DNA of 5,059 nt. Source: a virus (Duplodnaviria; Heunggongvirae; Uroviricota; Caudoviricetes). A program made the position numbers. The stretch lies in the IMG/VR virus record IMGVR_UViG_2681813313_000012, positions 1-5,059 of that record. One strand, 5' to 3'. Positions 1-5,059 of this stretch are shown in pieces; position 1 is the first letter of the stretch; each line of letters opens with the position of its first letter.

Positions 1-3000
1 CCAGCCACTCCATTCAGTTTCGGAGTAACCGTGGCACTGCCGGCGGTGAACACCAGCTCCAGCGTCTGCCAGTCGTTACTGTAATTCCCGAACTCGCCCA
101 ACTTTGTGTTTCCTGCTTTCTTGTGATGCATCAGATTCAGTTTGCCGTCTGTGGTCTGGGTGAAGAACGACATCAGGAACGGATTACCGGTACCCGTCAT
201 CGCCACGACGTCAGGTAACGCTACATCGGTATACAGATAAATTCCCAGACCGAACTGATTGTTGGTCAGTGCGCCTGACAGTCGAAACTTACAGCTCAGT
301 CTGCCACCCCGTGTCAGCAGGGAGACTGCGTCATCCACCGGGCGCGTCAGGGACCAGGTTTTATTGCTCTGCTTGGCGATCTTAAATACACCACCCGACA
401 ACTGAATTCCGCCGTCCTTAATGGTCCAGCCCTGCGCAGCAGCCTCTCCGGCTGTCGGCAGCAGGGAGATTGTGCGAACGGACGTATCTGCAGACGGACC
501 CGATGGCGTGTCGCCGCCGGGCGAGGGTTTGATTTCCGGTGCCTTACCACTGATGAAGGCTGAGGTGCGCCCGGCTGCGTTCAGAATAGCGGTTGCCATA
601 CGATCGGGAATAATGCCACGACGCGCCCATGAGCTGAAATGCGTCGGGCGATTTGATGATACCCAGTTTTTGTTCGTTCGGGATGCCGAACCGTAATAAC
701 CAGACCCGACAATATCAGGATCTTCTGACGGGTTGTTTGTCGGTGTATTAACTCCGCTACCATCGGTCATAAAGGGAACAAAATAAATCTGCTGGGATTC
801 TTTACCTTTATATGCACCATATACCACTTCATATTGCGTACCGTGTTCTTGTTTCCACGCGTATGTCGTGTCGCCACAAATCCAGGGGACTGATGCCGGA
901 CTTCCACCGTGACACTGCGCCGCCAGCCCGGCAAGGTCAGCACGGAACTGCTGTACCATTGCAAGAAATGCTGCTGGCTGCTGGGCGTAACTGGCATTCG
1001 TCATATCGAATTCCCCCTGCATCCAGCATATCGCCAGCAAAACGTTTTTCGGGTTTTTCTGCAATGCTGCCTTCGTGCGGAAAAGCAGATCCTGATATAA
1101 CGGCTTACCCACTCCCCAGCGAGCCGAATCCTGACTGGCCCCCGTGGACTCGCTGAATGTCCCCTCCGTGCCCTGGGTGAATGCCGAACCACCACGACAG
1201 CATGGTACCAGCAGGATCCCCGCATTATTAGGGATATACGGAAGCAGTTTTTTGGCAATATGTAAGCCCTGTCCGACACAGCCGTACTGCCCTTTGCTCA
1301 GGTCAGCCCGGGGATGGTTAATCGTACTCATATCCTGAACATCATGCAGACAATGGTCAGCAGGAATGATGTCGTTAAATACGCATACTTCACCACCGGG
1401 AGTCACTGTGTTACGACGGGCCAGTTGCTTAATGCGCGGATGGGGCGCATCGTATGAATCCGGAAGCGGAAGCCCTTCACCGTAAGCCATGGCATTGGAC
1501 TGCCCGGCCAGTACGATGACGTAGTACCACTCCGGCTCAGTTGCACCACTGACGACCACATCACCTTCTGCTGCAATCGCCTGCATCAGGGTATAAGGGG
1601 TTATGGCCACCGGACTACCAAACGGCTGCCAGCCCTCTTTCAGTTTATGTGTCAGCTTTTCCGCAAGATCTGACGGCGACGCCGCCCTGACAACATCATA
1701 GTGTTTAAATGCCATGAATCCTCCCGGCCGGGATAATATTGTGAGTAAAATGAGGAGCGGGCTGAAGTCCGGAAGTTACAGGACAATGGCAGAAGAGAGA
1801 CAACAGCCCGCAATACGAAAAAGACCGCGCTATTGCGCAGAGTGATTACTGTCGGATATTATTCGCCAGCTGAAATATTACTTCACGTTTTGTTGTTTAT
1901 TCCTTGCCGCCCGCGTCTCCCAGCGCGGGATTTTTTTGTCCATAAGAAAGCCCCTCCGGAGAGGGGCTGGAGAGTGGCGCTATGTGCCATTGCATGGTGC
2001 CGGGTGCCTCCCGGTGAATTCAGTACCAGCACCTGAATCCGCGATTATCCCATATACCTACTCGCTGATTGCCCCTCCGCACAGGGGGATTCACCATGCC
2101 AGTTTCTTTTAACAAACTCCCCGCAAACCAGACAACAGTCAACCGCCTGAATTGTGAGACATTTAAAAAAAAGGCCCGCAAAAGCGAGCCAGGGAAAATA
2201 AGTGTGGCGCGTTGTACTGGATTCGAACCAGTGACCGATTGCTTAGAAGGCAATTGCTCTGTCCGGCTGAGCTAACAACGCAGGATACAGATAATGGACC
2301 GCCTTCGGGGACCCGAACTCTGCGCAACCAGCTTCGAAAGCTGGCGCTCTTTCCTGATGAGCTAATGGCGGTATGTGATGGTGGCCCTTGCTGGATTTGA
2401 ACCAGCGACCTGGCGATTATGAGTCGCTCGCTCTCACCACTGAGCTAAAAGGCCGGGCCGAAAATAATAATCAGATGAAATCAAAAATCAAGCCCTTGCC
2501 TGGATACATATCTGTCTGGCGGGAAGCCATAATAGCGGTGAAATACAGAGATAAAGTAGGCTCTACTTGAATAACCGCATTTTGCTGCTACAGCCTGTCC
2601 ATATCCATGCCGGGAACATAACATATTTACAGCAACCCGCATCCGTTCCTCAAGTAACAAATTACTGAACCTGAGACCTTCATCCTTGAGTTTTTTCTTT
2701 AACAAGCTCTCACTCATATGCAACTGTAGAGCAATCGCACCAAGCGTCCAGCTTGCTGATATATCTGTTTGAATTATCGCTCTGACTTTGGCACTTATAC
2801 TGGATACACATCCACTTAAAAATAATGACATCCGTTCATCTGATTCAAACAGCGACAGGCAGGCCATCATAAGAAACATATCCGTGGTCTCTCCGGAAAG
2901 TCTCTGACTGGTAATTAAAGCCACAGTCAACGCAGGATTGTTGGGTTCCAGCAACAAGTAAAGCGGAATGTCAGTCAGAGGACCTCTCGTCAGCTTATGC

Positions 3001-5059
3001 TGGCTTTCCAGATATTGACTTACTATAGAATGGCTTATATCGACAATTTTAACTTTGCCATAATGCATAAGGAAAAGCTCCCTGATGCATTTGGTGGCCA
3101 GAACGACTGAGCCGGGCTTAAGTGACAATGTATCCTTTTCAAGAAAAATATTAATTGGGGAACAAACCATGATAACTGAACAGATAGCAGTCATTATAAT
3201 TTTACTTTAATTAGCAATCGGTTAGCTTAATTATAGCCCCAAAAAGTAAATTCTCATCAACACATAAGCAAATGACTGACAGGTGCCGCTAACACCCACC
3301 AGCCGCCCATTTACCACAAATAAAAAACCTTCAGGACTGAAGGACTCTGTAACAACCAAACTGATAGTCTGCCAGACCCGCCATAACCAGCTGGGTCAGT
3401 ATTAACTGGCAGCGTTCGCGTGAAAGGTACATATTCTGCGCAATCTCCCCGACTGTCGCCGGTTCGGTGACGCTTAACTCATTAAACACCACTCTGGCGG
3501 TTTCGGTCATATCCTGCTGTTTTAGCATGTCTTTTTCCCTTTTCTGGTTAACGTAACATACCAATAACTCTTGTCGAAAAAGCCAGCAAGTTGAAAGACC
3601 GGTATTCGCAACCACCAGCGCGTTTAATGTTCTGTACCGCTTTTCGGGCACAATAAATATCCTCCGGCATAGCCGGAGGTTTTTCAAATGCGCCTATAAG
3701 GCTCTCTTACCAGCCGCGCCCTAACAGGCGCACACGATCTGACATTTGCATCCAACTTCGTTACTTACGGCCCGTAAACGGGCTGCCCGGATAGGGAATC
3801 GATAACTGCTCTCCCATTTTATCCTCTTCAAGCTGGTGCTTTATGTAATCCTGTATCTTCGCCGTGTTCTTACCCACCGTATCGACGTAATACCCTCTGC
3901 ACCAGAACTCCCTGTTCCTGTACTTGAATTTCAAATCACCAAACTGCTCGTAAAGCATCAGACTGCTTTTCCCTTTCAGATATCCCATAAAGCCGGATAC
4001 GCTCATTTTGGGCGGGATCTCCACAAGCATATGGATATGATCTGCACAGCATTCAGCTTCCAGAATCCGTACACTTTTCCACTCACACAGCTTTCTCAAA
4101 ATACAGCCTATTGCTCTACGCTTCTCTCTGTAGAACACCTGTCTTCGGTATTTTGGCGCAAATACTATGTGATATTTACAGTTCCATCGGGTGTGCGCTA
4201 AGCTCTTTTCGTTCCCCATTGGGACCCCCTTTTGATTTCTTGTTTGACACTTGCAGTTGCCAGACCGCAAGGTGTTTTAACAAATCAAAAGGGGTTTTAA
4301 TAACTGGCTCAAAGCTGAAAGCTTTCCGGAACCCCCAGCCTAGCTGGGGGTTTTCTGTGCACAAAAAAACCCGCTCATCGGCGGGTTTAAGCTGTGCGGC
4401 GTAGTAACCACTCTTAACAGTATATTCAACTTTTTACGATCGTAAAGCGTTCGGGGGAAATTTTTAAAGCCGCATCAACCGCTCCACCAGTTGCTCTTTA
4501 CGGGCAACGATCCACCCGTGTTGCTCCAGATAAAATTTAAACCGTTCCAGAGTGCATACCATCGCATCGGCGGGCACCTTTTCCGTGAACTCAACCTGAC
4601 CATGTTTATCGAAGTGGATCAGTAATGCGCATCCATCATTTTCGATAGATGTGTTTTGTGCCGCTGGTGGTTGTTTTTGGTTGAAATAACAGTCTTCCAG
4701 TTTTTCGAATACTTCCCACGCCTGATCGGTTTCGAGCATTTTGGCGTGACGGGCTGCTCCGCGTTCTGTCCAGAGTATGAGCTTTCGGACATTTGGGGCG
4801 ATCGTTTGAAAATCCCTTAAAGAGATTTTCAAATTTTGGAGGTCTGCGCCTTTCGCAATTATGTAGTGCTTCCCTTCTGCAAATCGCTCTTTATTACGGT
4901 GGTGATTTCTATGAATACACTCGACGCTACAGCCATATAGTTTGGCCAGTAACTCTGTAGTGAACCGCCCCGGAAATCCTGGAGACTAAACTCCCTGAGA
5001 AAGAGGTAAACAGGATGACTAAAAATACTCGTTTTTCCCCCGAAGTCCGTCAGCGGGCG

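Follow-up and report, generated by a model that had tools for sequence, protein, structure and literature searches.

We analyzed a 5,059-nucleotide stretch of viral DNA (Caudoviricetes; IMG/VR record IMGVR_UViG_2681813313_000012, positions 1 to 5,059), hereafter called the window, with a focus on a gene of its minus strand whose predicted product is an AraC/XylS-family regulator that resembles PsrA and PsrB of Escherichia coli O157:H7. Over positions 1-4963, the window differs by one mismatch (99.98% identity) from a lambdoid prophage found in E. coli Z1322HEC0003. Read along the minus strand, the upper part of the locus comprises the gene for the Q antiterminator, which lies just outside the window, an ORF6N gene, the insertion sequence (IS) IS200C, a 65-residue open reading frame (ORF) and the psr gene (3194..2481). 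These are followed by tRNA-Ile2(CAT), tRNA-Arg(TCG), tRNA-Arg(TCT), a small RNA (sRNA) of the STnc100 family, nanS-p, and the holin and lysozyme genes. The nanS-p esterase gene, also on the minus strand, extends from 1715 to beyond the window edge. Shiga toxin (Stx) phages carry stx in the late-region stretch that corresponds to the window; the corresponding slot of this prophage contains no toxin gene.

The psr gene is an intact ATG-to-TGA ORF of 237 codons, as the first-pass annotation of this DNA had proposed. Exactly the same protein is deposited in RefSeq as WP_000125029.1, where it is annotated as a 'helix-turn-helix domain-containing protein' and occurs on 263 contigs, and the window protein matches phrog_1450 over its full length (E 6e-93). 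Pfam recognizes HTH_AraC in two stretches with 43.7 bits (cut-off 26.6) and HTH_18 at residues 155-230 with 40.6 bits (cut-off 33.6). The protein is on this evidence assigned to the AraC/XylS family, with a predicted C-terminal domain of about 100 residues containing two helix-turn-helix (HTH) motifs, and the double HTH described in the first-pass annotation is recovered by profile search. An alternative start at M43, which is used in 195-residue annotations and has a GGAG 10 nt upstream, was rejected because residues 1-42 align with PatE, GadW, AppY and YdeO from residue 1, and because the first ATG is invariant among five alleles.

The base composition of the psr gene differs from that of the neighbouring phage genes. 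The G+C (GC) content of the ORF is 42.3%, compared with 53.4% for the left flank (1-2480) and 46.4% for the right flank (3195-5059). These gaps of 11 and 4 points fall short of the 15-25 points originally estimated; a gap of 18-20 points is obtained only against the local GC maximum within nanS-p (60-62% at 300-600).

The window was compared with five late regions of strain EDL933. Its homology to the left half of CP-933O breaks off at 3258 and is regained at 2455; in CP-933O the place between these points is taken by a DNA methyltransferase gene. In CP-933P the tRNAs come directly after Q and homology to the window starts at 2484, while CP-933N has neither the psr gene nor the tRNAs. The resulting segment (Table 1) consists of the gene with 63 bp of upstream and 25 bp of downstream sequence. 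It behaves as discrete cargo, present or absent among sister prophages and with discrete borders at 3257/3258 and 2455/2456, and in these respects resembles a moron, in agreement with the earlier proposal of a moron beside the late tRNAs.

Table 1. Features of the psr locus in the window, with the evidence on which each is based.
Feature	Position	Strand	Evidence
psr cassette, present, absent or replaced among sister prophages	2456..3257	minus	EDL933 late-region comparison
psr-type gene, 237-residue AraC/XylS-family regulator, PsrA/PsrB-family allele	2481..3194	minus	ORF, Pfam, BLASTP
C-terminal DNA-binding domain, residues 134-232, seven helices, two HTH motifs	2499..2795	minus	GadX 3MKL alignment
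N-terminal domain, residues 1-133, beta-strand region followed by helical linker	2796..3194	minus	profile alignment to ToxT/Rns
AT-rich spacer between the 65-residue ORF and psr, 36.8% GC, holds promoter-like element	3195..3330	minus	composition
Sigma-70 promoter-like element, ATGAGA-16 nt-TATAAT, overlapping TTGATG	3230..3257	minus	10/12 consensus
Terminator-like hairpin, CCTTCAGTCCTGAAGG + TTTTTTATTT, closing the 65-residue ORF and separating it from psr	3328..3343	minus	hairpin scan
Small conserved ORF, 65 residues (PGAP: 'hypothetical' or 'TrmB family')	3331..3528	minus	phrog_331, E 1.2e-35
Prophage tRNA cluster, tRNA-Ile2, tRNA-Arg(TCG), tRNA-Arg(TCT); downstream slot border	2205..2454	minus	ARAGORN, PGAP

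Relationship to PsrA, PsrB and other AraC-type regulators

Comparison by BLASTP with prophage-borne and chromosomal AraC-type regulators, as the first-pass annotation had recommended, identified PsrB as the closest characterized relative of the window protein (90.3% identity), followed at a distance by PatE (36.6%), GadW (34%), YdeO (29.5%) and AppY (29%). In the N-terminal domain, identity is 89% to PsrB, 27% to PatE (E 2.6e-17), 27% to GadW and 21.5% to AppY (E 1.4e-6). The first-pass annotation had described the N-terminus as AppY-like. The MxxxCSVI start and the N-terminal domain are indeed present in AppY, but they are common to the whole GadW/YdeO/AppY/PatE/Psr subgroup, of which AppY is among the more distant members compared; the full-length alignment to AppY has an E value of 2e-35 and the DNA-binding domains are 40% identical.

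PsrB (Z2104, encoded in CP-933O/OI-57 of EDL933) has 237 residues and aligns with the window protein without gaps. Its locus is the same slot, with a Q-type gene, a 66-residue ORF, psr, tRNA-Ile/Arg and nanS-p. Its gene is similar in GC content to the window gene (43.8% and 42.3%), and the upstream promoter-like element is common to both. The prophages themselves differ: that of the window carries another Q type, has ORF6N, IS200C and IS1203 as additional elements upstream, and lacks the TerB/DUF3927 genes, which in CP-933O come after the tRNAs. We identify the CP-933O gene as Z2104/psrB since the primers published for Z2104 (PMC4763077) fall within it and yield an amplicon of the stated length, 158 bp.

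The EDL933 genome (NZ_CP008957.1) has exactly two megablast places for the psr gene, the second of which (1,266,008-1,266,721) is in the prophage at 1.25-1.30 Mb. Its product (WP_000261909.1) also has 237 residues and is 88.2% identical to the window protein without gaps; the 28 substitutions include K167I and R211W. We take this copy to be PsrA because its 90.7% identity to PsrB fits the 90% reported for the PsrA-PsrB pair (review PMC10877973) and it is the sole other copy. The layout around it resembles that of the window, with three tRNAs and nanS-p downstream and 92% nucleotide identity over window positions 1204-3657, but it differs in having a CPBP protease gene upstream and a PerC/Pch-family gene about 4 kb downstream. 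Sharing of a prophage with effector loci and Pch (PerC-family) regulators is regarded as a trait of the Psr family. In the 29 kb inspected around the window prophage, a span that leaves the tail/effector end outside, there was no PerC-family annotation.

Reviews place psrA (Z1789) in CP-933N/OI-50, but tblastn found no psr homologue in Sakai Sp6 or in CP-933N of resequenced EDL933, nor was a homologue found in CP-933P, CP-933X or the left half of CP-933O. The resequenced CP-933N is about 1.36 kb shorter than OI-50 of the old assembly, and the discrepancy, which concerns the stretches 1625001-1675000 and 1250001-1300000 of NZ_CP008957.1, reflects either an assembly difference or a difference between stocks.

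Among the more distant relatives, PatE (CP-933H/OI-8, EDL933) is a prophage-borne, AraC-like activator of acid resistance from the same subgroup, and its DNA-binding domain is 49.5% identical to that of the window protein. It has 247 residues, resides in another type of prophage at another position, next to tail-fibre and invertase genes, and is too distant to be an allele. The K-12 proteins GadW, GadX and YdeO, which are chromosomal GAD regulators, and AppY, which is encoded in DLP12, share the same architecture, and all except GadX begin with MxxVCSVI; for GadX, the 42% identity to the window protein is confined to the C-terminal part. GadW, GadX, YdeO and AppY converge on gadE (PMC10057817). 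In a scan of NCBIfam no AppY-specific model matched, and the best hits were to the YdeO (NF007407) and GadX (NF007432) equivalogs, with 100.7 bits against a cut-off of 348 and 89.9 bits against a cut-off of 500, respectively. Alleles in the databases form a graded series of 95%, 91%, 90%, 88%, 78%, 76% and lower identity, which by our comparison is consistent with the 'six additional Psr homologs' that have been reported (review PMC10877973). To the alleles psrA and psrB of E. coli O157:H7 the window gene, judged by its sequence, adds a third, and it is hence of a kind already known.

The predicted domain structure is that of a two-domain regulator. Residues 134-232 align to the DNA-binding domain of GadX (3MKL) with E values of 5.7e-20 as a single sequence and 1.3e-30 as a profile. 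The family profile aligns to residues 26-232 of ToxT and residues 75-230 of Rns, so the build appears to be the same as in the ToxT/Rns class. The structurally solved members of that class, Rns/CsvR of enterotoxigenic E. coli and ToxT of Vibrio cholerae, have low identity to the window protein, and binding of fatty-acid ligands is known for Rns and ToxT. We know of no ligand for the GadW/YdeO/AppY/PatE/Psr subgroup.

An AlphaFold2 model built from a 13-sequence family alignment had a mean pLDDT (predicted local distance difference test) of 63 and a pTM (predicted template modelling score) of 0.43, and was used for secondary structure alone. In this low-confidence model the recognition helices are predicted at residues 162-171 (ESLLKKKLKD) and 211-222. 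K166, in the first of these (SESLLKKKLKD), aligns with K170 of AppY, and the K170E substitution abolishes DNA binding by AppY (PMC10057817). We infer that the window protein binds DNA in a sequence-specific manner and activates transcription. Eight of the 23 substitutions between the window protein and PsrB are in the DNA-binding domain, and the predicted recognition helices account for three of them, with K167T and D171N in the first and A212S in the second. The window protein differs from both PsrA and PsrB at the DNA-binding-domain positions K167, D171, L174, R175, N178, A204 and A212. K167 is the residue also found in GadW, AppY, YdeO and GadX, and the SESLLKKKLK helix is identical to that of YdeO.

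Control signals, selection and distribution

The AT-rich region upstream of psr that was pointed out in the first-pass annotation corresponds to the spacer listed in Table 1. The promoter-like element in it was the best match in a scan of the region and lies about 36 nt upstream of the ATG, within the upstream edge of the cassette. In five alleles the TATAAT, the TTGATGA and the start codon are invariant, and in three of them the ATGAGA hexamer has T as its third base. Mean column identity among these alleles is 96% over window positions 3150-3345, which include the first 45 nt of psr, compared with 91-94% in the coding region. The stem of the terminator-like hairpin that separates psr from the 65-residue ORF is retained in the allele of an Stx2k phage, and its loop differs. 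At the 3' end of psr there is only a weak hairpin of 5 pairs (2502..2489), and a second promoter-like sequence, TTGATT-16-TATTAT at 2491..2464, overlaps the stop codon ahead of the tRNAs.

The ratio of nonsynonymous to synonymous substitution rates (dN/dS) is 0.25-0.27 against psrB and the second EDL933 copy, and by this measure the gene is under purifying selection. Counted by megablast at a coverage of at least 80%, psr is present in 726 of 5426 complete E. coli genomes (13%), at 1324 places and with a median of two per carrier; carriers often hold two to four copies. All but one of the matching places (1323) are chromosomal, and every locus inspected was a prophage late region. The gene is full-length in all 726 carriers and annotated as a coding sequence in 30 of 30 sampled rows, so the homologous loci do not display the disruption that would have spoken against the original proposal. 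For scale, the methyltransferase is found at 3225 places and the tRNA cluster at 7410, counts that span whole genomes beyond the slot and, for the tRNAs, may include host tRNA genes.

An allele 94.9% identical to that of the window occupies the same slot in phage phiSTEC1575-Stx2k (OQ243220.1), directly upstream of the tRNAs and stx2k. Just downstream of stx2k this phage carries a gene for an IraM-type anti-adaptor, an RpoS stabilizer (record positions 7512-7835), which makes it a second modulator of the host stress response beside the Psr allele in that late region.

Neighbouring features of the locus

The 65-residue ORF matches Pfam TrmB weakly, under the cut-off. It precedes the slot whichever cargo is present, psr or methyltransferase, and is frameshifted in the second EDL933 locus. 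On the other side of the slot, the tRNA gene at 2379-2454 has a CAT anticodon and is called Met by ARAGORN and Ile by the Prokaryotic Genome Annotation Pipeline (PGAP). We take it to be a prophage ileZ-type tRNA-Ile2, whose CAT anticodon specifies Ile once it carries the lysidine modification.

Downstream of the tRNAs, positions 2128..1938 of the minus strand give a full-length match to Rfam STnc100 (RF02076), with 138 bits against a gathering score of 47. The match sits between the terminator-like hairpin of the tRNA cluster (2190..2173) and nanS-p, and has a terminator-like hairpin of its own (1968..1949); on the other strand PGAP places a partial pseudogene. Conservation of the block 1983-2117 is about 90% in the EDL933 late regions of CP-933N, CP-933P, CP-933M and the right half of CP-933O (psrB), four in all. 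The EvrS sRNA of EDL933 has been described between z1789 and the esterase gene z1793 (PMC11774850), and it may be the same RNA as the STnc100-type RNA of the window.

Two insertion sequences are found upstream of the 65-residue ORF. IS200C (3658-4358, 701 bp, with tnpA at 4219..3761) is inserted between this ORF and the ORF6N gene; the EDL933 loci and most related genomes lack it. The 5' untranslated region of the element matches Rfam STnc490 (4352..4229, 146 bits), and a strong terminator-like hairpin is present at 3661-3679. The last 99 bases of the window (4961-5059) are the end of an IS1203 element (IS3 family) inserted in the ORF6N gene. The same IS1203 lies between the small ORF and IS200C in strain Z1323HEC0108, and strain Z1322HEC0003 has none there. 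Since the positions of IS1203 differ among strains, the window represents a third arrangement, in which two IS elements separate Q from psr.

Predicted targets and alternative explanations

PsrA and PsrB increase GadE and YhiF, with repression of type III secretion as the consequence; PsrB has binding sites in the hdeA (-132 to -45) and gadE promoters and improves survival in acid, and PatE does the same at hdeA (reviews PMC10877973, PMC8565820). We consider it probable that the window gene is a Psr allele in a late-region cassette that functions as a regulator of host acid resistance, acting on host genes. This would bear out the earlier suggestion that a prophage regulator of this type acts on host acid-resistance or virulence regulons, which is supported by the homology to PsrA and PsrB. 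The accompanying statement that the target regulon could not be predicted was too pessimistic, as the 90% identity to PsrB allows a specific prediction, namely the gadE and hdeA promoters. In a lysogen, the protein would be made from its own promoter and would bind AT-rich sites in the gadE and hdeA promoter regions of the host through its two recognition helices, leading to activation of the GAD (AR2) acid-resistance regulon. In strains carrying the enterocyte effacement locus (LEE), type III secretion would be lowered indirectly through GadE and YhiF. The regulator would act in this way on host rather than phage genes; upon lytic induction, Q-modified polymerase would also read through psr.

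A different set of host targets would be expected if the protein were an analogue of AppY, with the operons of anaerobic and stationary-phase respiration (hya, cbdAB-appA) as its main targets. The two proteins belong to the same subgroup, share the MxxxCSVI N-terminus and the DNA-binding lysine, and have a significant full-length alignment. AppY is also prophage-borne and also binds gadE (PMC10057817), so the two regulons may overlap. The identity to AppY in either domain is nevertheless far from the 90% overall identity to PsrB, and is set against 37% overall for PatE; the NCBIfam scan favours YdeO and GadX, both far under their cut-offs; and appY, a neighbour of ompT, lies at the tail-fibre end of DLP12 and not between Q and tRNAs. 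With neither orthology-level similarity nor an ompT-side position, AppY identity was rejected on identity and context, and we regard AppY-like respiration targets as very improbable. Equally improbable is a regulator directed at phage functions instead of host loci, whether the lysis-lysogeny decision, the adjacent tRNA cluster or the stx/STnc100/nanS-p late region. Such a role would fit the position of the gene immediately before the tRNAs of the late operon, its placement ahead of the tRNAs and stx2k in phiSTEC1575-Stx2k, and the overlap of the promoter-like element for the tRNAs with the psr 3' end. However, psr is dispensable for the late region, since in sister prophages with the same Q/tRNA/nanS-p layout the slot is empty or filled by a methyltransferase. 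The characterized family members act on host GAD genes (PMC10877973), and at most about 18% of the tRNA-cluster places can adjoin psr (1324 versus 7410, a total in which host tRNAs may be counted).

The gene could also be silent cargo of a decaying prophage, for example AT-rich DNA repressed by H-NS, that has no effect in normal conditions. The DNA of psr and of the spacer before it is AT-rich, Q and psr are separated by two IS insertions, an integrase-type gene elsewhere in the same prophage is frameshifted, and deletion of psrB alone had little effect on secretion in O157 (review PMC10877973). This explanation is unlikely given that the ORF is intact, with a dN/dS of about 0.26 and full length in every carrier, and that conservation is higher upstream than within the coding region; silencing of a kind that can be lifted is compatible with a host-directed acid-resistance regulator. 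Several of these observations, together with others, do weigh against our preferred explanation. The insertions of IS200C and IS1203 show that the prophage is decaying, and the small effect of the psrB deletion shows that the family members are not equivalent. The promoter is called as a consensus match, and such matches are no commoner in the region than in shuffled sequence. Site preference could differ from that of PsrB because of the substitutions in the DNA-binding domain and its predicted recognition helices, and activation of the GAD genes by the window allele, though likely, is predicted from PsrB, PsrA and PatE. An extension of the host-directed explanation is that the window allele, given the DNA-binding-domain positions at which it departs from both PsrA and PsrB, may be no simple counterpart of PsrB; the host promoters that it recognizes may form a shifted or wider set, and it may couple the carriage of Stx phages to acid resistance in non-O157 Shiga toxin-producing E. 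coli. The allele group (about 95% identical) does travel on an Stx2k-converting phage directly upstream of stx, but we think it quite unlikely that the allele has this broader role.

The findings leave current understanding unchanged, and the gene is of the ordinary, already characterized PsrA/PsrB kind. Assignment to Psr turns a generic RefSeq annotation into a specific, testable function. Regulators of the Psr/PatE type are a known route by which prophages enter the core acid-resistance circuit of E. coli, with further effects, exerted through GadE, on type III secretion and gut persistence. The family is common, being found in 13% of complete E. coli genomes, and the slot of its gene, which is swappable, adjoins the place where stx is inserted; an Stx2k-converting phage is among the carriers.

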